A stretch of 32,000 bases of DNA from Phycisphaera mikurensis NBRC 102666 (lineage in GTDB: Bacteria > Planctomycetota > Phycisphaerae > Phycisphaerales > Phycisphaeraceae), in assembly GCF_000284115.1 (NCBI RefSeq), contig NC_017080.1:1560001-1592000 (forward strand), written 5' to 3'. The notes under the pieces were generated by a model. It was not told the origin of the DNA, ran no database searches, and saw nothing but the letters and a program-made list of their open reading frames with translations. Within the stretch, counting starts at the first letter, position 1. Each line of letters begins with the position of its first letter. A program made the translations under genes and the position numbers. This document shows, one piece after another, positions 6-14,306 of the stretch.

Positions 6-1025
6 ATGCTCACCCGCCGCCGCCTGACCGCCACCCTTGCCCGCCTCGCCGCCGCCGCGACGATCGCCGGCTCCCTCGTCCTGCCCGTTGCCTCGGCTTC
101 CGCCCAGAACGAGCCGCTGAAGATCGGCTACAGCGACTGGCCCGGCTGGGTTGCCTGGGAGATCGGCATCCAGAAGGGCTGGTTCGAGGAGGCCGACGTC
201 GACGTCGACTTCCTTTGGTTCGACTACGTCGCCTCCATGGACGCCTACGTGGCCGGTCGGGTCGACGCCGTGGCCATGACCAACGGCGACGCGCTGGTCA
301 CCGGCGGCACGGGCAAGCCGTCGGTCACGATCCTCATCAACGACTACTCCAACGGCAACGACATGCTCGTCGTGAAGCCCGAGGTGAAGACGGTCGCCGG
401 CCTGAAGGGCAAGAAGATCGGCGCCGAGCTGGGCTTCGTCGGGCACCTGCTCGCGATCACCGGGCTGGAGATGGCCGGCCTCAGCGCCGACGACGTCGAG
501 TTCGTCGACACGCCCACCGACCAGACCGCCTCCGTGCTCGCCAACGGCGACGTTTCCGCCATCGCCGCCTGGCAGCCGAACTCCGGCGAAGCGTTGAAGG
601 CCGTCGAGGGCGCCCGCGCGCTGTTCACCTCGGCCGATGCGCCCGGCATCATCTACGACGTCCTCGCCGTGTCGCCCGAGAGCCTGGAGTCCCGCCGCGA
701 CGACTGGATGAAGGTCATCGGCGTGTGGTACCGCATCGTCGAGTACCTCAAGGACGAGGACAACATGGACGACGCGCTCGCCATTCTCGCCGCCCGCGTA
801 AACGTGACGCCCCGCGAGTACGAGCCCTTCTTCGAGGGCACGTACATCCTGACGCTGGACGAGGCGATGGAGCGCTGGGAAGAGGGCGACGGCCTCGGCT
901 CGATCTACGGGTCCACCGCGTACGTCAACGCCTTCAACGTGGAGCAGGGCGTGTACGACAAGCCGCTGGACGTGTCGGCGTACCTGGATCCGTCGCTGAT
1001 GGAGGCGTTCGCGGAGATGGATTGA
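6..1025 (+). CDS. ABC transporter periplasmic substrate-binding protein, NitT/TauT (SsuA/NMT1-like) family; candidate guanidine-binding component
   Basis: 339-aa ORF. It has an N-terminal signal peptide ([23 protein letters not shown]) followed by an SsuA/NMT1-type binding-protein pattern ([11 protein letters not shown]..., [12 protein letters not shown]). It is the first gene of a co-directional ABC set. The ATG is at position 6, so any leader or riboswitch lies outside the window. Confidence 0.85.
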
Positions 1026-1060
1026 GCTTCCGATGCCGCTCGCGGACCGAAGACGGGTTC

Positions 1061-1091
1061 AGCCACCTTTTCCGAGGCGGAAAAGGTGGCT
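1061..1091 (+). terminator. Intercistronic stem-loop between the binding-protein and permease genes (possible attenuator or mRNA-stabilising hairpin)
   Basis: Perfect 12-bp inverted repeat: AGCCACCTTTTC (1061-1072), 7-nt loop CGAGGCG, GAAAAGGTGGCT (1080-1091). It starts 36 nt after the stop at 1025. No U-tract follows, so it is not a classical intrinsic terminator. Confidence 0.35.
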
Positions 1092-1104
1092 GGCCCCATG
1101 AGGA

Positions 1105-2535
1105 TTGACGGACGATGGGTTTCTCGACATGGCCGCACCCCCTTCTCGATCTCCGTGGTTCGCGATCCGGCGGGAGGTGCCGACGCATCGCAGCGGGCTG
1201 CTGATGGCGGCTTCGTTCGCGGTGCCGGTGCTCATCTGGTGCGTGCTCGCGTACGTGCCCCTCTTCCACGCCGACTACCGGCTGACGGTGGTGGCCGAGC
1301 GACAGGCGGCGAACACGGCGACGCTGACCGTGGGCGACCGCGTGGAGAAGGGCTACTTCCAGGACTACCTCGACGAGGTGGCGGCGATGAACGAGCAGAT
1401 CCGGGCCCGCGTGGCCGCGGGCGATCTTGACGCCTCGACGCGGTCCAACACGAGGATCCTCCGGGCGCTGCGGCCGGTGGCGGAGTCCAACGGCCTGCTC
1501 GCGGGTGTCGACACGGGCGACAGCGGCGTGGTCGACGCGAAGCTCTACGAGCTCTGGCTCGCGGCCGCGGATGGCGAGCGACCCGAGCTGATGGCGGCGC
1601 TGTCGGAGGAGAACCAGGCGGTGGTCCGCGGCAACGCCGAGGTCCTGCGGCGGTTCCCGCCGGAGGATCGCCAGAGCAAGCCGAAGGTGCGGGAGCCGCT
1701 GCTGAACCTGCTGCCGCAGGGTGTCTCCGCCTCGCCGGTGTACCTGCCGTCGCCCGGCGAGTGCATCCGAGCCTTCGTCGACGACTTCACCACCGAGCCG
1801 CCCAACGGCCAGCCGTGGATGCACGAGCGGCTGCTGTCGTCGCTGAAGGTCGTGTTCGGCGGCTTCGGGATGGCCGTGCTGATCGGGCTGCCGCTGGGGA
1901 TTCTGTGCGGCTGCTACGGCGTCTTCGCGCGGCTGTTCGAGCCCTTCACCGACTTCTTCCGCTACATGCCGGCCCCGACCTTCAGCCTGCTGCTGGTCGC
2001 CGCCTTCGGCGTGGAGGGGGCGCCGAAGCTGGCGCTGGTCTTCATCGGCACCTTCCCGCACCTGCTGCTGATGACCGGCAACACCACGCGGACGCTCGAC
2101 GCGAACCTGCTCGAAGCGGCGCAGACCCTCGGCTGCAAGCGCACCGGCCTGCTGACCCGCGTGGTGATCCCCGGGACGATGCCGCACCTCTACAACGACC
2201 TCCGCGTCCTGCTCGGCTGGGCCTGGACGTGGCTGGTCATCGCGGAGCTGATCGGCACCAAGTCCGGCCTCACCGGCTTCATCGACGTGCAAGGCGCCCG
2301 CCGCAACTTCGACCGGGTGTTCCCGGTGATCATCATGATCGGCCTCATCGGCTTCACCACGGACCAGCTGCTGCAGTTCGCGGCCCGTCGCCTCTTCCCC
2401 TGGGCGAACCCCGGCCGCGGGCGTTCGGGGTGGTGGAAGCGGCTGCGGGGCTTGTCCGCCCGCCGCCGCGACGCCGGCGTACCGACCAGCGACGAGCCGA
2501 CGCTCGATCCGGGCAAAGCGGCGGTGCTCGCGTGA
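1105..2535 (+). CDS. ABC transporter permease, NitT/TauT family, with a large N-proximal insertion
   Basis: 476-aa ORF starting at TTG 1105 (alternative ATG 1129). The C-terminal ~250 aa is a typical TauC/SsuC-type membrane domain: LPSPGECIRAF, GFGMAVLIGLPLGIL and the EAA-loop EAAQTLGCKRTGLLTRVVIPGTMPHL. One TM helix (LLMAASFAVPVLIWCVLAYVPLF) lies far upstream of this domain. Confidence 0.85.
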   Translation: MTDDGFLDMAAPPSRSPWFAIRREVPTHRSGLLMAASFAVPVLIWCVLAYVPLFHADYRLTVVAERQAANTATLTVGDRVEKGYFQDYLDEVAAMNEQIRARVAAGDLDASTRSNTRILRALRPVAESNGLLAGVDTGDSGVVDAKLYELWLAAADGERPELMAALSEENQAVVRGNAEVLRRFPPEDRQSKPKVREPLLNLLPQGVSASPVYLPSPGECIRAFVDDFTTEPPNGQPWMHERLLSSLKVVFGGFGMAVLIGLPLGILCGCYGVFARLFEPFTDFFRYMPAPTFSLLLVAAFGVEGAPKLALVFIGTFPHLLLMTGNTTRTLDANLLEAAQTLGCKRTGLLTRVVIPGTMPHLYNDLRVLLGWAWTWLVIAELIGTKSGLTGFIDVQGARRNFDRVFPVIIMIGLIGFTTDQLLQFAARRLFPWANPGRGRSGWWKRLRGLSARRRDAGVPTSDEPTLDPGKAAVLA

Positions 2536-3416
2536 GCGTCGCCCATCCGCCCGAGGTCGCCGCCCGCTTCGGCCGCATCCGGCAGCGGCCGGTCGTTCTG
2601 GAGGTCGAACAGCTCGGCAAGAGCTTCGTCTCGCCCGGGGGCGAGACGGTCCGCGTGTTCGACGGGGTCGACCTGTCCATCCGTCGGCGCGAGTTCATCA
2701 CGGTGGTGGGACCGTCCGGCTGCGGGAAGAGCACCTTCATCCGCATGGTCGCGGGGCTGGAGACCGCGACCTCCGGCCGCATCCTGCTCGACGGCGAGGC
2801 GGTCGTCGGCCCCGGCGCGGACCGCGGGATGGTCTTCCAGGCGTACACGCTCTTCCCCTGGCTGAGCGTGAAGAGAAACGTCATGTTCGGCTTGCTCCAG
2901 GCCGGTCGCAGCGAGGCCTCCGCGTCGAGCGAGGCGTGCGTCTGGCTGGAGATGGTCGGGCTGAAAGGCTTCGAAAATCACCACCCGGCCCAGCTGTCCG
3001 GCGGCATGAAGCAGCGCGTCGCCATCGCCCGGGCGCTGGCCAACAAGCCGCGGATCCTGCTGATGGACGAGCCCTTCGGTGCGCTGGACGCTCAGACGCG
3101 GGCGGAGATGCAGGACTACCTGCTGCAGATCTACCGCAACGTCGACGCGACGATCCTCTTCATCACCCACGACCTCGACGAGGCGGTTTACCTCGCCGAC
3201 CGCGTCGTCGTCATGGGGCGCAAGCCCGGCCGCGTCATCGAGACGGTGGACGTGCCCCTGCTCCGCCCCCGCGACCCGCAGATGGCCTTCACCGACGACT
3301 TCCTGGCCACCAAGCGCCACATCGAGCACCTCATCCACCCGCCCGAGCCGGCGGGTACGGAGAAGAGAAAGGCGCCGATCACGCGGATGACGGTGGTCGG
3401 CGACGAGGTGTATTGA
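2532..3416 (+). CDS. ABC transporter ATP-binding protein, NitT/TauT family
   Basis: Walker [10 protein letters not shown], signature [15 protein letters not shown], Walker [13 protein letters not shown] and H-loop FITHD are present. The GTG at 2532 overlaps the permease stop (GTGA), which implies translational coupling. Confidence 0.9.
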
Positions 3417-3459
3417 TGCGCCCTCCGGTGCCGCCGGTGGCTGTGCCTGTTGACGAAAG

Positions 3460-4206
3460 TTGCCCGCGTCCGCAAGGTTCTCCGAAAGCGTCCCCCATGA
3501 CACGTGCAGCCCCTCGCGCCGGCGGGCTCTGCCCGCCGAAGCCGTAGCCCGTCCGCACCTCAACTCGCGAAGCGAAATCCCCCGAGCCACCGCCACCGAA
3601 GCCGCCCGGACCCGCGAGGAGGTCATGTCGACCGCGCTGGCCATCTTCGCGCGTCGGGGCTACGCCGCGACGCGGCTCGCCGACGTCGCCGACGCGATGG
3701 GGGTGACGCGCGGGGCGATCTACGGGCACTTCGCCAGCAAGCAGGAGCTGTTCCTGGCGGTGGTGCGGAAGAGCCAGGACCCGATCTACGCGCTGCTCGC
3801 CGAGGTGGAGCGAGAGGCCGCCGCGGGCGTATCTCCGCGGGCTTCCCTCCGCGGGATGATGCTGGGCTGGTGCCGGCTCCTGCGGGAGGACCCGCAGCAC
3901 CGGGCCGGATTCGAGCTGGTCATGACCAAGACGACGTTCGTCGACGAGCTCGAGGAGCTCTACGAGCGGGAGAAGCAGCTGACCCGCGACGTCATCCGCA
4001 CGGTGACCCGGACCGTGGAGCGGGGGCAAGCGGTCGGCGAGTTCCCCGCCGGGCTCAACCCGCGGGACGCGGGGCTCACGGTCTACCTGCACCTGATGGG
4101 GCTGACGCAGGCGTGGCTCTTCAACCCCGCGCTCTTCTCGCTCGCCCGCCGGGCGGAGACCCTCGCCGACGCCACGCTGGGCGGCCTGGGCGTCCAGACC
4201 GCGTGA
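3460..4206 (+). CDS. TetR/AcrR-family transcriptional regulator
   Basis: N-terminal TetR HTH: TREEVMSTALAIFARRGYAATRLADVADAMGVTRGAIYGHFASKQELF. The start is uncertain. TTG 3460 is the only canonical in-frame start upstream of the conserved RTREE segment. Third-position GC is lower in 3460-3600 than in the gene body. Confidence 0.8.
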   Translation: MPASARFSESVPHDTCSPSRRRALPAEAVARPHLNSRSEIPRATATEAARTREEVMSTALAIFARRGYAATRLADVADAMGVTRGAIYGHFASKQELFLAVVRKSQDPIYALLAEVEREAAAGVSPRASLRGMMLGWCRLLREDPQHRAGFELVMTKTTFVDELEELYEREKQLTRDVIRTVTRTVERGQAVGEFPAGLNPRDAGLTVYLHLMGLTQAWLFNPALFSLARRAETLADATLGGLGVQTA

Positions 4207-4244
4207 CCCGCTAAGATTCACCAGCGCATCCAAACCGGACGACC

Positions 4245-5423
4245 ATGAACGACTCTCACCACACGCCGCCCGCTTCCGAGCCCCTCGATCCCAAGCAGAT
4301 GAAGGGCTACCTCGCGGCACTCAAGGAGGAGTCGATTCCCAACAAGACGTACCTGGAGGAGATGAAGCGGCAGGTCGAGATCGGCCTGCCCGGGGCGGAT
4401 TCCATCGGCGACAAGACGATCAGCACCTTCTCGCGGGGCGAGCTGCCGCACTACGCCGGCATCAACACGCTGCTGAAGCTGAAGTACCTCGAAGACGTCC
4501 GCGAGGTCGGGAACTACGACGTCGCCTTCCTGGGCATCCCCTTCGACATCGGCACCACCTACCGCTCGGGCACGCGCTTCGGGCCGCAGGCGATGCGCCG
4601 GATCTCCGCTCTCTACACCAGCTACTTCTACGAGCTCGGCGTGGACCTGGTGGAGAACGTGAGAATGTGCGACCTGGGCGACGTCTTCACGATCGGCAAC
4701 ATCGAGAAGAGCTTCGACCAGGTCTCCCGCGCGGTCAGCCACGTCTACAGCTCCGGCTGCTTCCCCTTTCTCATGGGCGGCGACCACTCGCTGGGCTATC
4801 CGAACGTGCGCGGCATCGCGCCGCACGTCGACGGCGACATCGGGATCATCCACATCGACCGTCACATCGACATCCAGGAGAAGGACATGGACGAGCGGAT
4901 GCACACGTGCCCGTGGTTCCACGCGACCAACATCCCCAACGCCCCGGCGAAGAACCTGGTGCAGGTGGGCATCGGCGGCTGGCAGGTGCCGCGGCCGGGC
5001 GTGAAGATCGCCCGCGAGCGCGGCACGAACATCATCTCCATGGACGACGTGGACGACCACGGCATCGACAAGGTCGCCGAGATGGCGCTGGAGATGGCGT
5101 GGAAGGGCAACGTGAAGGCGGTCTACCTCTCCTTCGACATCGACAGCGTCGACTGCGGCTTCGTGCCGGGCACCGGCTGGCCCGAGCCCGGCGGCTTCCT
5201 GCCGCGCGAGGTGCTCAAGCTGCTCAAGCTCGTGGCGAGGGAGGGCATCTGCGCGATGGAGGTCGTCGAGGTCTCACCCGCGTACGACACCTCCGACATC
5301 ACCGCGCTCCTGGGCGTCCGGGCGATGCTCGACGTGCTGGCGACGATGGTGGACGAGGGGATCCTGCCCCGGAAGGAGAAGGCCGTCTCGGACGCGGGCA
5401 TCGACGGGTGGAAGGGGACGTGA
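4245..5423 (+). CDS. gdmH: Arginase/agmatinase-family ureohydrolase; context predicts a Ni-dependent guanidine hydrolase (GdmH-like) rather than agmatinase
   Basis: 392-aa ORF with ureohydrolase metal-site motifs: FLGIPFD...GTRFGPQAMR, MGGDHSLGYP, IIHIDRHIDIQ and LSFDIDSVDCGFVPGTGWPEPGG. hypA and hypB homologues lie immediately downstream and an NitT/TauT importer lies upstream. Confidence 0.75.
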   Translation: MNDSHHTPPASEPLDPKQMKGYLAALKEESIPNKTYLEEMKRQVEIGLPGADSIGDKTISTFSRGELPHYAGINTLLKLKYLEDVREVGNYDVAFLGIPFDIGTTYRSGTRFGPQAMRRISALYTSYFYELGVDLVENVRMCDLGDVFTIGNIEKSFDQVSRAVSHVYSSGCFPFLMGGDHSLGYPNVRGIAPHVDGDIGIIHIDRHIDIQEKDMDERMHTCPWFHATNIPNAPAKNLVQVGIGGWQVPRPGVKIARERGTNIISMDDVDDHGIDKVAEMALEMAWKGNVKAVYLSFDIDSVDCGFVPGTGWPEPGGFLPREVLKLLKLVAREGICAMEVVEVSPAYDTSDITALLGVRAMLDVLATMVDEGILPRKEKAVSDAGIDGWKGT

Positions 5424-5498
5424 TGTTCGCAAGCCGTCCGAGCACCGCTTCGCGGGCCACGACGGGCACGCAGGCACGAAGACACGAAGGGGGATCGG

Positions 5499-5897
5499 GT
5501 GCATGAGCTCTCGGTCGCGATCTCCATCGTCGACAGCCTGAAGGACGTGCTGGAGGAAGAGGACGGAGGAAAGGTCTCGTCCGTCTCCGTGGCGGTGGGC
5601 GCGCACGCCGGCGTGGTGATCGAGGCGTTGCGTTACGCGTGGGGGCCCGCCACCTGCGGCACGCCCCTGGAGGGCTCGGTGCTGGACGTCGAAGCGGTGC
5701 CGGCCACCGTCTGGTGCGGCAGGTGTGCGTCGGAGTCCGTCCTCCCCGGGGTCCGCCTCTCCTGTCCCGCGTGCGGTGCCGCCACGCCCGTGCTCCTTTC
5801 CGGCAAAGAGCTCGACCTCCTTTCGTTCGAGCTCGAGCGGGATCTTCCCCCCGCCGAGCCCCCCCTCCGTGCCTTCGTGCCTTCGCGTCCTTCGTGA
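5499..5897 (+). CDS. hypA: HypA-family Ni metallochaperone (GhaA-like accessory protein)
   Basis: The GTG start gives the N-terminal MHE Ni-binding motif (MHELSVAISIVDSL). The zinc site has two CxxC pairs (WCGRCASE ... SCPACGA). A purine-rich RBS (GAAGGGGGA) lies upstream. No hydrogenase genes are in the window. Confidence 0.85.
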   Translation: MHELSVAISIVDSLKDVLEEEDGGKVSSVSVAVGAHAGVVIEALRYAWGPATCGTPLEGSVLDVEAVPATVWCGRCASESVLPGVRLSCPACGAATPVLLSGKELDLLSFELERDLPPAEPPLRAFVPSRPS

Positions 5898-5926
5898 ACG
5901 AGCGGAGCGCTGCCCCCGACCCGCCC

Positions 5927-6595
5927 ATGGCCGCAAACACCACCCGCCTCGTCGAAGTCCGAACGAAGATCCTCAAGAAGAACGACGAGCACGCGCGGGC
6001 GCTGCGGGCGCGTTTCCAGGAGGCCGGGGTCCGCGTGGTCTCGTGGGTGTCGTCGCCGGGCTCCGGGAAAACCGAGCTGCTCAAGCGGCTGCTGCTGCAC
6101 CTCAAGCAGACGCGGCCGGGGCTGAAGGTCGCCACGCTGGTCGGCGACCTCGCCACCGACAACGACGCCGACCGCCTCGCCGCCGCCGGGTACCCCGTCG
6201 CCCAGATCCTCACCGGCACCATGTGCCACCTCGAGGCCGACATGACCGCGGGGGCCATCGAGAAGGCCGGCTGGGACCTCGAGGAGATCGACCTCCTGCT
6301 TGTCGAGAACGTCGGCAACCTGGTCTGCCCCGCCACCTACGACCTCGGCGAGGCGCTGCGGGTCGTGGCGCTCTCCACGACCGAGGGCGAGGACAAGCCG
6401 CTGAAGTACCCGACCATCTTCAACACCGCCGACCTGGCGGTCGTCACCAAGATGGACCTGGCGGAGGTACTCGGCTTCGACGAAGCCGCCTGCCGCGCGA
6501 ACATCGACGCCGTGCGACCGGGGATGCCGGTTCTCGGCGTCTCGGCGAGGAGCGGCGAAGGCCTCGCTGAGCTGGCCGCGGCGGTCTTGGGCTGA
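5927..6595 (+). CDS. hypB: HypB-family Ni-binding GTPase (GhaB-like accessory protein)
   Basis: ATG 5927. P-loop SSPGSGKTELL, the metal-binding CH motif (GTMCHLEADM), ENVGNLVCP and a TKMDL NKxD-like motif are present. There is no His-rich N-terminus. Confidence 0.85.
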   Translation: MAANTTRLVEVRTKILKKNDEHARALRARFQEAGVRVVSWVSSPGSGKTELLKRLLLHLKQTRPGLKVATLVGDLATDNDADRLAAAGYPVAQILTGTMCHLEADMTAGAIEKAGWDLEEIDLLLVENVGNLVCPATYDLGEALRVVALSTTEGEDKPLKYPTIFNTADLAVVTKMDLAEVLGFDEAACRANIDAVRPGMPVLGVSARSGEGLAELAAAVLG

Positions 6596-7609: not shown

Positions 7610-8950
7610 TCAGGCGCGGCGGCGGCGGCCCAGCAGGAGCGCCCCGGCGCCCGCGAGGACCACGGCCGAGGCGGGCTCGGGCACGGTGACCGAGAAGATG
7701 CCCGAGCCGCCGGCGTTGGTGGTGCCGGCGAAGTAGACGTCGAAGACGCCACCCACCGAAGAGGTGATGCCCAGCACGTCCGTGAAGTTCTCGAAGCTGG
7801 CGAGGCTGGCGATGCCGTTGCTCGTGTCGACCGCGTCGCCGATGGAGAAGACGGCCTCGCCGTCGACCACGAGCGTGTCGGGGTTGTTGATGCCGTCGTC
7901 GTCGGTGTCGACGAGCGTGGCGTAGTTCCCGGTCGCGGAGAGTTCCGCGGCGTCGAAGCCGTCGAAGATCGTGCGGCCACCAACGGTGTCGCCGGACTGC
8001 AGCACGATCTCGCCGTCGAGGGCGAGGAACTCGACGGTCTCGGTGGAACCCGGGTCGCTGTTGTCGTCGTAGTCGCCGGTGAAGAGGTAGGCGCCGGCGT
8101 CATTCACCCCGAAGCGGAAGAAGTTGTCCCAGACCGCGTCGGCGACGCCGGGAACGGCCATGCCCTCCTGGATCGCCGAGCCGTCGCTTCCGGTCGCGGT
8201 GGTGACGGTCCCCGTCGTCAGGTCGGCGATGACAACGAAGTCGTCCGTGGCCGAGGGCTCGCTGCCGACGCTGACCCGCGTGGCTGCGAAGAGTCCCCCG
8301 CTGGACACCTCGTAGTCCGAATCGATCTGATCGATGAGTGCGGTGGTCCCCGGGCCCGTCGAGATGGACGTCGTCGCGCCGGCGTTGCCGAAGACGAACT
8401 GCAGCGCCGTGGCGCTCCCGCCGTCGGTGAAGAGGGCGGTGGCGGAGTTGCTGGTCGGCGGGTTCGTGCTGGAGAAGAAGACCAGCTCGCCGGCCGCGGT
8501 CAGCTGCGGGCGGGCCGGGATGCGGTAGACGCCAAGCGCCGAATCGGCGGCGACGCTGTCGCCCTGCGTGAGGACGCGGCTGCCGTCCCGGAAGATCGCC
8601 GAGTCGTTGGAGCCCGGGCCGCCGATCCGGTAGACCACCGAGCCCGCGGCGTCGATGCCGGGGGCGCCCGCGAAGTCGTTGATGTCCGCGCCTTCCTCGT
8701 CCACGAGGGCCAGCCCGCCGGGGCCGGCGGTGAAGACGAACTCGTTCGCCGAGGAGCCGGTCCCGTCGCCGGTGAGCGCCGCGACCTGACCCGCGGCGTT
8801 CACGTTGAAGCCCTGGATCTCGCCGATCGTCTGGCCGCCGACGGTGGTGCCCGACTCGACGACCGCCGTGGCGGTTTGAGCGAAGGCGGAGGGGGCCGCG
8901 GGGACGGCGGCGGCGAGCGCGAGCGTTGCGAGGCGGGAGCGGGTGGTCAT
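7610..8950 (-). CDS. PEP-CTERM-anchored secreted repeat protein
   Basis: ATG 8950 with GGAGA 6 nt upstream. Signal peptide [24 protein letters not shown]. The C-terminal PEP-CTERM sorting signal is [24 protein letters not shown]. The body is Gly/Thr/Asp-rich with a recurring GxTVGGxTI...F motif. Confidence 0.8.
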
Positions 8951-9051
8951 GGGGTTTCTCCGGTCGGGGCGAAAATTTGCTGCGCCGGTGCGCACGCCGG
9001 ATTATGCTGCAAGACCCGCACAGACGCAACCCGTCTTCTAGGACCATCACC

Positions 9052-9861
9052 ATGAAACCTGCTGGTGCCCGACGAGCACGCTTTCAACCCGCCGCGTTCA
9101 CCCTGATCGAGCTGCTGGTGGTGATCTCGATCATCGCGCTGCTGGTGGGGATCCTGCTGCCGGCGCTCGGGAAGGCCCGAGAATCAGCACGCGCCTCGGT
9201 GTGCCAGTCGAACCTGAAGCAGCTGGGCATCGCGGGCCACGCCTACGCGACCGACTTCGACGGCTTCCCGCCGGGCGACGAAGCCCTGGGCGGTGCTTCG
9301 ATCCGCATGGGAGCGGGCGTCGACGGCGGCAACCACCCCAAAGCTTCGCTTCGCAACCCGGGCGTGGAGGAGACCTTCGGCCTCTCCTCCGTCTACGCCC
9401 GCCAGGGCTACATGGACCCTGGCGCAGGGTGGATCTGCCCGTCGCAGTACGCGGTGGTCGGCGGCAGCGGGTACGACTTCGCGATGGCCGAGTGGGGGAA
9501 CACGTACCTCGTGCAGACCGTCGACAAGCGGATCGAGCAGATGATGCTGGAGACCGACGCCAGCAAGACGCCGGTGCCCTGGGCGAAAGACAATTGGCTC
9601 CGGTACCCCGGCCAAGCGGGCAACTACGTCCCGGGGCGGAACAGCGATGCCGACAAGGGTGGCAGCCTCCCGTGGAGCGTCCGCGGTGCGGCCATCCCCC
9701 ACCGCGGAGCCGGGGGCATCAAGACCGAGGGGCTGAGCACGTTCACCGCGTGGCAGGACGCTTTCGCGCCGGTGATGGGCACGTTGAACGTCGACAAGAT
9801 CGCCGGCCAGAACAAGCTTTTCTACGACGGACACGTCGAGGCGGTGTATCAGGATGGCTGA
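9052..9861 (+). CDS. Prepilin-type N-terminal cleavage/methylation-domain protein, DUF1559 family
   Basis: ATG 9052. The leader is followed by [29 protein letters not shown] and then [17 protein letters not shown]. The C-terminal motif is [10 protein letters not shown]. This architecture is typical of planctomycetal DUF1559 pseudopilin-like proteins. Confidence 0.85.
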
Positions 9862-11044
9862 TCGGCGGGCGGTGGCGCTGCCCGCGGTCGCCGCGGGCTT
9901 GGTGGCGGGCCTGGGCCTGCTCGCCGGAGCGACCGCGCCCGCGGACGATCCCTCCGCGGCCGACCTCCGCGCGATCTACAGCCAGCCGCCGGCGGCGTGG
10001 CCGGCGGCCACCGTGGACGAGGGGGTGGAGCCGCGGGAGCTGGGCCTGCTGCCGGAACTGCCCGAAGCGGACGAGAAGCTCGTCGGGCTCGGCGAGATGC
10101 TCTTCTTCGATCCGCGGCTCTCGACGACCGGGCAGATGGCCTGCGCCAGCTGCCACGACCCGGACCTGGGTTGGGCCGACGGGCGGACGACCAGCTTCGG
10201 CTTCCGGCGGACGCAGCTCCCGCGGAACGCCCCGACGATCCAGAACAGCGGGCACCTGCACCCGCTGTTCTGGGACGGGCGGGCCGGGAGCCTCGAGGAG
10301 CTGACGCTCGAGGTCATCGAGCACCCCGACGAGATGCGTGGCACCGGCACGGCGGTGGTCGAGCGGCTGTCGGCGGTGCCGGCGTACGCCGAGGCCTTCG
10401 CCGAGATCCCGGGCGAGCCCGGCGTCACGATCGAGAAGGTGACCTCCGCCGTCGCCGCGTTCTGCCGCAGCGTCAACGGCGGGAAGAGCCGCTTCGACGC
10501 CTTCCTGCGCGGGCGGGAGACGGCGCTGACCGACGCGGAGCTGCGGGGCTTGCACCTCTACCGCACCGAGGCGAGGTGCATGAACTGCCACGACGGCCCG
10601 GAGATGAGCGACGGCAAGCTGCACGTCACCGGGCTGTCGCTGTCGGGCACGCCGCGGGAGGACCTCGGCGCCTACGCCGTGACCGGGAGGCCCGAGGACA
10701 GCGGCGCCTTCCGCACGCCGACGCTGCGGAACATCGCCAAGACCGGCCCGTACATGCACCACGGCCTCTTCGAGAGCCTGCCCGTCACGCTCCGCGCGTA
10801 CAACGGCGGGATGCCCACCCAGCGGGACCGCATCAACGACCCCGCCGACCCCGTGCCGGTGAAGAGCCCGCTGCTGCACGAGCTGGGGCTGGACGACGCG
10901 CAGCTCGGAGACCTCGAGGCCTTCCTCCGCTCGACCACCGAGCCGCACCGCCTGGTGCTGCCCCCGGACCTCCCGCCGCACGCCGACGACGCTCCGCCGC
11001 CGGCGATTCCTCCTGACGCCGAGGCCGGCCACGCGAGGCCGTAG
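9854..11044 (+). CDS. Di-haem cytochrome c peroxidase (CCP/MauG family)
   Basis: Two CxxCH haem motifs (CASCHDP, CMNCHDG). Family motifs [20 protein letters not shown] and [19 protein letters not shown] are present. The ATG at 9854 overlaps the upstream gene by 8 nt (ATGGCTGA). Confidence 0.9.
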
Positions 11045-13558: not shown

Positions 13559-13634
13559 GGCGCGACGCTAGCGCCATGCTGTGCGTCGCGGCGCCGGGTG
13601 CAATGATCCGCTGCGTGCCGCGTTGGAGGTCCAG

Positions 13635-14306
13635 ATGCCCATCCCACCCCGCTCCCGGACGCTCCCTCGGCGGGGCTTCACGCTCCTCGAGCTGCTCGTG
13701 GTGATCTCGGTCGTCGCGCTCCTGATCGGGATCCTGCTGCCGGTGCTGGCGGCGGCGCGGACCACGGCCCGCCGGGTCACCTGCAGCGGCAACCTGCGGC
13801 AGATGGGCGTCGCGATGGAGAGCTACACCCAGCTGTTCGACGGGTACTACCCGCTGGCGCGCCCCGTGGCGAAGCCCTTCGCGCCTTACGCGTACCACCC
13901 GGCGGACGCCGGGCCCGCCTTCGCCGGCCGGGAGCTGCCGGAGCTGGCCGCGACGATGGCGTCGGTGGGGCTGGAGCCTCCCCGGGCGGACGACCCCGAC
14001 AGCGTCTACCACTGCCCCGACGACGAGACCGTCTTCCCCGTGTCGGCCAACAGCTACGCCTACTCGGGCTTCCTCCGCGGCGAGACGCTGGAGGCGATGC
14101 TGGCGCGCGGCTTCGTGTCGCGGCGGAACATGGACGCCAGCGACGTCTTCGTGATGATGGACTTCGACGGCGAGGAGGGCGGCAGCGACTTCGTCCTGCT
14201 GCCCGCGCCCGACGGCCCGGGCGGCTCGATGGTGGTGCCCAAGCGCCACTTCAAGCGGAACATCCTCTTCGCCGACGGGCACGTGGGCTTCGACCTCGAC
14301 TCCTAG
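13635..14306 (+). CDS. Prepilin-type N-terminal cleavage/methylation-domain protein, DUF1559 family (short)
   Basis: ATG 13635 with GGAGG 5-6 nt upstream. GFTLLELLVVISVVALLIGILLPVLAAAR is followed by TCSGNLRQMGVAMESY. The C-terminal motif is ILFADGHVGF. Confidence 0.8.
   Translation: MPIPPRSRTLPRRGFTLLELLVVISVVALLIGILLPVLAAARTTARRVTCSGNLRQMGVAMESYTQLFDGYYPLARPVAKPFAPYAYHPADAGPAFAGRELPELAATMASVGLEPPRADDPDSVYHCPDDETVFPVSANSYAYSGFLRGETLEAMLARGFVSRRNMDASDVFVMMDFDGEEGGSDFVLLPAPDGPGGSMVVPKRHFKRNILFADGHVGFDLDS

Follow-up and report, generated by a model that had tools for sequence, protein, structure and literature searches.

A predicted guanidine-scavenging operon of Phycisphaera mikurensis with an embedded TetR-family regulator, a candidate protein sensor of guanidine

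How is guanidine use controlled in a locus that appears to be devoted to it and carries no guanidine riboswitch? The role of guanidine as a natural source of nitrogen was recognised only recently and, to our knowledge, four classes of riboswitches are the only known cellular guanidine sensors. The question is raised by seven genes at the start of a 32,000-nucleotide stretch of the genome of Phycisphaera mikurensis NBRC 102666 (NC_017080.1, positions 1,560,001 to 1,592,000), hereafter called the window. Judging from their sequences, six of these genes correspond to gimABC-gdmH-ghaAB, an already known pathway with a Ni-dependent guanidine hydrolase, here in a phylum new to it (Planctomycetota), and the seventh, embedded among them, encodes a TetR-family regulator. 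The assignment of the catabolic pathway is solid but ordinary and the regulator is the interesting part: what appears to be new here is the control (a TetR protein and a sigma54-type promoter, without riboswitch), not the pathway. We consider the account as a whole, a guanidine-scavenging operon under the embedded TetR protein and a sigma54-type promoter, to be fairly probable, and the TetR protein to be a good candidate for the first protein sensor of guanidine.

The seven genes occupy positions 6-6595 of the window, all on the + strand and where a first-pass annotation of this DNA had placed them, and their domains were confirmed by Pfam and NCBIfam:

6..1025, + strand, putative gimA-like guanidine-binding protein, periplasmic, NitT/TauT type (NMT1_2/NMT1, SsuA family); first gene of the operon
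1105..2535, + strand, gimB-like ATP-binding cassette (ABC) permease (BPD_transp_1, residues 261-430 only)
2532..3416, + strand, gimC-like ABC ATPase (ABC_tran, E = 5e-33)
3460..4206 (frame), + strand, TetR-family regulator (TetR_N and TetR_C_2); start ambiguous
4245..5423, + strand, gdmH-like ureohydrolase of 392 aa (PF00491, E = 3e-76)
5499..5897, + strand, ghaA/hypA-like Ni metallochaperone (PF01155, 88 bits)
5927..6595, + strand, ghaB/hypB-like GTPase for Ni insertion (TIGR00073, 239 bits); last gene of the operon

The loci that we compared bear L numbers; L001 is the contig holding the window (JACHEL010000003.1, assembly GCA_014207395.1), and an L001 coordinate equals the window coordinate plus 5756. 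The nearest relatives of the locus are found in genomes of Planctomycetota/Phycisphaeraceae. The successive intergenic gaps measure 79, -4, 160 (or 43), 38, 75 and 29 nt, the GTG start of the ATPase gene overlapping the permease stop by 4 nt. The public NCBI gene call for the permease begins at window position 1129, and the HypB frame, whose longest open reading frame (ORF) runs from 5639, has its real start at ATG 5927. Between the genes of the operon we searched for terminators, sigma70 or sigma54 elements and unusually stable RNA structures and found none. Because the gaps are short, no internal promoter, terminator or structured RNA was detected and the next gene (a rhodanese gene) lies on the opposite strand, a single transcription unit is the simplest reading of the seven genes. 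The first-pass annotation had also spoken of hypA/hypB being fused to the arginase-family enzyme; these genes are merely adjacent.

The assignment of the enzyme rests on scores and on residues. When compared by bit score with all Protein Data Bank (PDB) sequences, the 392-aa protein matches Synechocystis Sll1077 (7esr/7oi1; 505 bits, E = 1e-150) and the guanidinase of Nitrospira inopinata (9fek; 503 bits, E = 7e-150), followed by a guanidinobutyrase (160 bits, E = 7e-46), by the solved agmatinases (115-122 bits) and by arginases (<90 bits), and it scores under both NCBIfam agmatinase cut-offs. The alignment with Sll1077, a check that the first-pass annotation had proposed, gives 61% identity over 357 aa with specificity and metal residues kept: the motifs of the binuclear metal site are intact (GGDH178, DRHID205 and SFDIDSVD296), and T105 and W312 align to T97 and W305 of the Synechocystis enzyme, if the numbering of the PDB chain is taken to be shifted by 2 residues. 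In Synechocystis numbering, Thr97 and Trp305 set the specificity for guanidine, and both characterised members of this clade are guanidine-specific (PMC11410670). By these scores and residues the enzyme holds a place in the GdmH/guanidinase clade, outside the agmatinases, and the earlier prediction of a guanidine hydrolase stands. In three related Planctomycetota loci (L082 9167-10345, L086 8178-9335 and L003 10167-11309), GdmH has a tandem paralogue, 62-64% identical, with active-site changes (ATTFK for GTTYR, SFDIDSIEGG for SFDIDSVDCG and GWAQPGG for GWPEPGG); such a pair recalls the two-subunit Ni metformin hydrolase, and the window has no such copy.

The genes for the substrate-binding protein (SBP), permease and ATPase lie directly upstream of the enzyme gene in most of 80 genomes from many phyla, and 61 of these loci are under a guanidine-I riboswitch, a conserved context that upholds the proposed NitT/TauT-type importer for guanidine. 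The NCBIfam models nearest to the ATPase are those of NitT/TauT-type ATPases, and the binding protein reaches 149 bits against TIGR03427 ('ABC_peri_uca'), under its cut-off. In an alignment of SBPs that left out the L011 and L013 rows, the binding protein shares the motifs WPGW, NDxSNGND and PG(I/L)IxD (PGIIYD in the window) with riboswitch-controlled homologues. GimA binds guanidine with a Kd of 97 nM, and a guanidinium site formed by W59, W62 and F205 together with D135 and D233 has been proposed for it (PMC12704784). The motifs of the window protein fit this proposed site and would hold the equivalent residues. The permease has an N-terminal extension of ~230 residues (window 1105-1800) without Pfam match, which is kept in its Planctomycetota relatives (465-526 aa) and missing from the ~250-300-aa permeases of other phyla.

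Both putative nickel chaperones retain the motifs that had been reported for them, as confirmed directly in the sequence. HypA starts with GTG-His-Glu (the MHE motif) and has both CxxC pairs (CGRC at 73 and CPAC at 89), and HypB has the P-loop SSPGSGKT, the CH metal motif at 100, ENVGNLVCP and TKMD. HypB passes TIGR00073 (239 bits for a cut-off of 121 bits) and HypA remains below the cut-off of the hydrogenase-type model TIGR00100 (64 vs 88). The GhaA/GhaB proteins have been described (PMC12704784). A hypA-like gene adjoins gdmH in L002, L003, L033, L060 and L082-L086; the arrangement of HypA/HypB directly after the enzyme is rarer than the importer synteny and was found in cyanobacteria, Planctomycetota, one Capsulimonadaceae and one Chloroflexaceae genome. 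No structural gene for a hydrogenase or a urease is present in the 32-kb window or in the 5.7 kb upstream and ~7 kb downstream on the same contig (about 45 kb in all), so that the earlier statement that none is nearby holds over this distance. An LRV-repeat protein and an ABC ATPase at the 3' end of the window, as in L082/L084, were considered as possible urea transport and urease functions; this idea found no support, since the ABC protein is a fusion of exporter type and is not followed by a urease gene. With enzyme scores below the agmatinase cut-offs and no local hydrogenase or urease, a label of 'agmatinase plus hydrogenase maturation' would indeed be misleading. We hold it very probable, from homology and gene context, that enzyme, importer and chaperones serve guanidine import, hydrolysis and Ni loading, respectively.

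This catabolic module is not new in kind, since a scan that took each species once found an enzyme 62-87% identical in at least 586 genomes of many phyla, mostly beside the same importer, and since both a guanidinase outside cyanobacteria (in comammox Nitrospira) and the gimABC importer have been published (PMC11410670, PMC12704784). With a limit of E <= 1e-30, a protein search returned >5,000 clusters, and almost all of them bear the name 'agmatinase'. The complete import, hydrolysis and Ni-insertion module that the first-pass annotation saw outside cyanobacteria is thus supported by homology, and is less novel than had been supposed.

How, then, might the operon be regulated? Rfam gives no match to a guanidine riboswitch of any class at gathering score in the window; a relaxed search (E <= 10) of L001 5300-12500, a stretch that takes in the 223-nt leader, likewise gave no riboswitch. 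Our own guanidine-I covariance model, built from three Rfam-validated aptamers, detects an aptamer just upstream of the importer or the enzyme in 61 of 80 genome loci, and none in the contig of the window or in five TetR-bearing related loci. The relaxed Rfam search and this model together led us to reject a hidden riboswitch. The riboswitch is present in 0 of 6 TetR loci vs 61 of 79 TetR-less loci (Fisher test with 60/74 in place of 61/79, p about 1e-4, the loci being phylogenetically non-independent). The scan of the leader had been proposed beforehand, and its outcome, no guanidine aptamer, strengthens the idea of a protein-based regulation. About a dozen full-length GdmH loci have neither TetR gene nor guanidine-I riboswitch (L006, L008, L016, L017, L018, L026, L032, L033, L040, L060 and L061), in Bryobacteraceae, Abditibacteriaceae, Capsulimonadaceae, Chloroflexaceae and others.

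A sigma54-type -24/-12 element, CGGCACGCCGCTTGCA, is located outside the window, 46 nt before the first ATG (L001 5702-5717; CGGCACGCCGCTTGC at 5702-5716), and a second one, TGGCACGGCGCTTGCA, precedes the neighbouring Rieske/FGE-domain genes (L001 2751-2766); the reference elements have GG at -24 and GC at -12 (TGGCAC-N5-TTGCW). The pattern YGGCAY-N5-TTGC was found twice in L001 vs 0.14 expected, both times in an intergenic region and correctly oriented. A sigma54 element also precedes the SBP gene in L002, L003, L082, L084 and L086, and a divergent copy faces the upstream genes in L002, L082 and L084.

Palindromes of the AGATGCGC type are present at L001 5620-5670, upstream of the operon. ATGCGC is the sole 6-mer common to all six SBP-upstream regions of the TetR-bearing loci (null mean 0.05), the top 7-mers in these six regions being GATGCGC and ATGCGCG, and the ATGCGC words sit inside palindromes: TACATGCGCGCGTGTA in L082, TAGATGCAGACGCGCATCTA in L084 and ATGCGCTTGCGCAT in L083. 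A further palindrome, ATGCGCGTGCGCAT, lies at L001 2637-2650, before the neighbouring sigma54 promoter. The ATGCGC motif is absent from two TetR-less Planctomycetota loci (L003 and L004), which keep the sigma54 element. These sequences point to a candidate operator upstream of window position 1. The operators that the first-pass annotation had located within the operon, at 3417-3460 and 4207-4244, have to be abandoned: neither region contains a palindrome of note, a sigma70 or sigma54 match, a terminator or a structure, and the 171-nt spacer between the ATPase and TetR genes folds no better than shuffles (z = -0.09). A 12-bp perfect palindrome, ACGTGCGCACGT, was rejected as a stand-alone motif (found once, with a chance expectation of about 2 when 2 mismatches are allowed); it is meaningful only within the wider AGATGCGC-containing region.

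Between the importer and a creatininase/GS-like operon lies a group of three genes (L001 2778-5538, ending 223 nt before window position 6; also L083 366-3332) with its own sigma54-like promoter (2751) and the ATGCGCGTGCGCAT palindrome. These genes encode an AP_endonuc_2 TIM-barrel protein, a Rieske oxygenase, for which the nearest model is the glycine-betaine monooxygenase GbcA, far below cut-off, and a protein with an FGE-sulfatase/EgtB-like domain.

The best solved relatives of the TetR protein are AcrR/TtgR (84 bits), and AmtR, a nitrogen regulator of the TetR type, is also among them. TetR orthologues of 209-215 aa are encoded between the ATPase and the enzyme in L002, L082, L083, L084/85 and L086, and are missing from two other Planctomycetota loci, L003 and L004. 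The start of the window gene is ambiguous. Three positions come into question, TTG 3460, ATC 3577 and ATG 3625, only the first and the last being canonical in-frame starts. The orthologues, including that of the 95%-identical relative L083, begin with ATG where the window has ATC 3577; the publicly annotated ATG 3625 would delete the invariant A9, T12 and R13 of helix 1, and the 160-nt stretch before 3577 shows no conservation with L083.

A metagenome scan with the TetR alignment recovered 80 loci encoding proteins 33-43% identical. The TetR gene is directly preceded by an SBP gene of the uca/GimA type in 81 of 84 loci, and the SBPs beside the marine TetR genes pass TIGR03427, a family tied to 'urea' (now guanidine) carboxylase. 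Two marine arrangements were distinguished: type A (n=26), with the order UAAP1-UAAP2-carboxylase-SBP-TetR and a convergent GS-III-like gene, and type B (n about 50), with the order GS-III-like-SBP-TetR. In type A loci, UAAP1 and the permease-ATPase genes are each preceded by a guanidine-I riboswitch, which proves the guanidine context and indicates that the TetR protein is no mere substitute for a riboswitch. The simple rule that TetR replaces the riboswitch was consequently rejected, as these loci have both. Of the earlier suggestion that the TetR acts instead of or in addition to a riboswitch, one part therefore stands (no riboswitch in the window, a recurrent TetR) and a general replacement does not. 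That the embedded TetR is a regulator is supported by its same position in five related loci and by the ties of its subfamily to guanidine loci elsewhere. Cultured carriers of the subfamily belong to Marinobacter, Stutzerimonas, Halopseudomonas and Alloalcanivorax, and the protein is always generically named.

Each marine locus has one copy of an almost perfect inverted repeat, ATACAyGC-TG-GCATGTAT, and in every case this copy lies a short way upstream of the GS-III-like gene (80 matches in 853 kb, compared with 3 in the 1.28 Mb of loci without TetR). The repeat has the core A(C)ATGC, similar to the half-site A(G)ATGC of Planctomycetota, and the recognition-helix region changes in step with the half-site (GVTRGAIYGHF vs G(C/F/Y)SRGPIYWHF). 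The signature of the ligand domain is kept across both phyla (W..LL, (H/Y/F)R..FE...(N/T)KT(E/T) and Y..LMG.T..WLF.P.LF); TetR proteins are seldom conserved to this degree, which points to a shared effector.

The GS-III-like gene is a constant partner of the TetR subfamily (L001 257-2585 region, L082 1228-3408 and marine L087-L165). The L001 copy lies 3.2-5.5 kb upstream of the window; it shares 43-46% identity with its marine counterparts and reaches 396 bits against TIGR03105, short of the cut-off. The Planctomycetota copies have a creatininase-family gene as partner. Candidate roles are plain ammonium assimilation or the gamma-glutamylation of a small amine or of guanidine. Between the marine operator and the start codon of this gene, a conserved element, GAAGGA(A/T)TCGTGCCA (L100 8480-8900 on the - strand, L087 3900-4010 and L094 3180-3300), may be a short upstream ORF starting from GTG. 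Some marine carboxylase loci (L100, L103 and L122 around 9650-10050; L111 and L159 1-380) combine three layers of control, namely sigma54 elements (TGGCAC-N5-CTGCA), NtrC-like TGCAC...GGTGCA repeats and a guanidine-I riboswitch, the TetR gene being the last gene of the riboswitch-controlled operon. In Stutzerimonas stutzeri (L167, GCA_024448935.1, 1-10618), the GS-like-SBP-TetR genes are found near a HupE/UreJ-type Ni transporter and an RcnR/CsoR-type metal repressor, and genes for an isochorismatase-like hydrolase and a metallo-beta-lactamase-fold protein precede the permease-ATPase genes; guanylurea and biuret hydrolases are members of the isochorismatase-like family.

In the mechanism that we propose, the operon gimA-gimB-gimC-tetR-gdmH-ghaA-ghaB would allow the cell to scavenge guanidine as a nitrogen source. 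By homology, guanidinium would be captured by the binding protein and imported by the ABC permease and ATPase, GdmH would hydrolyse guanidine to urea and ammonium, and the HypA/HypB-like pair would load Ni2+ into GdmH. All seven genes would be transcribed from the predicted sigma54-type promoter, which implies an activator-dependent input, probably nitrogen limitation, the activator supplying the nitrogen status as NtcA does in cyanobacteria. The embedded TetR would bind the A(G/C)ATGC half-site palindromes 35-80 bp upstream of the -24 element, and a second site that precedes the divergent creatininase/GS-like operon and the neighbouring sigma54 promoter. The repressor would be set free by guanidine or a near derivative of it, so that the operon would autoregulate.

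These steps do not all carry the same weight. The sequences lean towards a TetR protein acting as local regulator at the upstream palindromes. Guanidine is proposed as its effector because it is the only substrate common to the three architectures; that guanidine itself is the ligand is nevertheless a tentative proposal, with a chance somewhat below even. Several observations weigh against our account. The SBP does not reach the TIGR03427 cut-off and shares only 26-35% identity with SBPs that are marine or under riboswitch control, and no urease that could use the urea produced is encoded in the about 45 kb covered. The window's own site fits the strict palindrome model at only 12/14 positions, and the palindromes occupy the usual binding region of sigma54 activators and could therefore serve an activator instead. 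The type-A TetR gene lies inside a riboswitch-controlled operon and the conserved operator fronts the GS-III-like gene, so the effector may be something other than guanidine. Finally, the ancestral ATG of the TetR gene is now ATC, and expression or integrity of the protein in this strain is uncertain.

The last points lead to other explanations of the regulation. The TetR could regulate these genes and sense another effector, with the GS-like gene as main target; urea, a substituted guanidine, a substrate or product of the GS-III-like enzyme or, as for AmtR, a nitrogen-status protein would then come into question, and the importer palindromes may be sites of the sigma54 activator. The operator in front of the GS-III-like gene rather than the catabolic operon in about 76 marine loci, the riboswitches that already sense guanidine in type-A loci, the presence of AmtR among the solved relatives and the position of the palindromes (35-85 bp upstream of -24, and between divergent sigma54 promoters in L002, L082 and L084) all speak for this possibility. 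It has to face the facts that the subfamily travels with guanidine-type SBP genes in three architectures with guanidine as the only shared substrate, that relatives without the TetR have the sigma54 promoter but not the motif, and that the half-site core A(C/G)ATGC is shared by two phyla in step with the TetR; we regard it as rather unlikely. We give distinctly less credit to the idea that the TetR is crippled in this strain by the change of ATG to ATC and that the operon is under the sigma54 promoter alone. The orthologous start and the loss of A9/T12/R13 from ATG 3625 would agree with such a decay, but the reading frame, open from TTG 3460, is uninterrupted down to its stop codon, the invariant residues further downstream are all kept and the third-position GC content of the ORF (GC3) is 0.92.

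Could the substrate be other than guanidine in the first place? The enzyme might act on a related guanidino compound (methylguanidine, guanylurea or a biguanide), with importer and TetR tuned likewise. The subunits of metformin hydrolase, likewise a Ni-dependent ureohydrolase (PMC11271267), are among the PDB matches at 124-137 bits, related loci carry the tandem paralogue with changed active-site motifs, and creatininase-family and Rieske oxygenase genes are neighbours. This explanation is made improbable by the 61% identity to Sll1077 with T97/W305 kept in a clade of which the characterised members are guanidine-specific (PMC11410670), by the control of orthologous loci by guanidine-I riboswitches, which are guanidine-specific RNAs, and by the lack of the paralogue in the window. 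A true polyamine agmatinase with hydrogenase or urease maturation factors and an unrelated sulfonate/nitrate-type importer, as a generic annotation would have it, is hardly credible: homologues are publicly named 'agmatinase family protein' and HypB passes the hydrogenase HypB model TIGR00073, but the enzyme sequence contradicts this label (below both agmatinase cut-offs, 115-122 vs 505 bits), no hydrogenase or urease is found in the about 45 kb, and the orthologous loci stand in a riboswitch-validated guanidine context.

Compared with known guanidine systems, the predicted guanidine operon of P. mikurensis most resembles the genes gdmH-ghaA-ghaB (sll1077-1079) and gimABC (sll1080-1082) of Synechocystis PCC 6803, with a GdmH-clade Ni ureohydrolase (61% identity), HypA/HypB chaperones directly downstream and an adjoining NitT/TauT importer with a Trp/Asp-rich binding protein (PMC12704784). 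Unlike the two transcription units of Synechocystis, the window has one seven-gene unit with the importer first, in a planctomycete; it lacks an NtcA-type promoter and a guanidine-I riboswitch, and has instead a sigma54-like promoter and the embedded TetR gene. The locus of N. inopinata shares the enzyme clade (9fek, 503 bits) and a non-cyanobacterial host, but has an APC permease, no nearby Ni chaperones and a guanidine-I riboswitch (PMC11410670). The guanidine carboxylase loci (UAAP/CgdAB, carboxylase and TIGR03427 protein) have the binding-protein family in common with the window, and those of marine gammaproteobacteria also the TetR subfamily and its GS-III-like partner gene; they differ by an ATP-dependent catabolic route, by the guanidine-I riboswitches that they keep and by a TetR operator in front of the GS-III-like gene. 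Like AcrR/TtgR and AmtR, the window TetR combines a TetR_N helix-turn-helix with a TetR_C_2 ligand domain, a palindromic (candidate) operator and a gene beside its putative targets. It differs from AcrR/TtgR (84 bits) and AmtR (46 bits) by its distinct, strongly conserved ligand-domain signature, and the predicted targets of its subfamily are nitrogen-scavenging guanidine genes, unlike the efflux pumps of the AcrR/TtgR type.

The downstream part of the window contains three further genes, at 7610-8995 (-), 8926-9861 (+) and 13581-14306 (+), that encode a secreted protein with repeats and a PEP-CTERM-like anchor at its C terminus, and two prepilin-like proteins (N_methyl/SBP_bac_10, DUF1559); these proteins are typical of Planctomycetota and fit the taxonomic placement. 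Between 21 and 30 kb of the window the GC content climbs to 0.82.

What would a protein sensor of guanidine mean? A 2025 review names riboswitches as the sole receptors known for guanidine, transporters and enzymes aside, and lists guanidine-binding transcription factors as undiscovered (PMC12186494); our search of the literature available to us found no guanidine-responsive transcription factor. It is possible, though we put this forward with more reserve than guanidine as the ligand, that the embedded TetR is the first representative of a family of guanidine-sensing proteins that is widespread in Planctomycetota and marine Gammaproteobacteria (relatives of Marinobacter, Stutzerimonas and Alcanivorax). 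If so, guanidinium would be bound in a conserved Glu/Trp/Tyr-rich pocket and the A(C/G)ATGC palindromes released. The importer, either of two catabolic routes and a dedicated GS-III-like enzyme would in this way be coupled to the availability of guanidine, and the part of that enzyme in assimilating guanidine nitrogen would so far have gone unrecognised. Such proteins would be the first regulatory receptors of guanidine that are not RNAs, and would offer synthetic biology a second, orthogonal guanidine-inducible switch. The locus and its relatives supply a protein candidate, a candidate operator, a predicted promoter type and cultured hosts (Marinobacter and Stutzerimonas). The analysis also corrects the annotation 'agmatinase plus hydrogenase maturation' for a large set of genomes and indicates that Planctomycetota possess the GdmH route, together with a putatively dedicated pair for Ni insertion.

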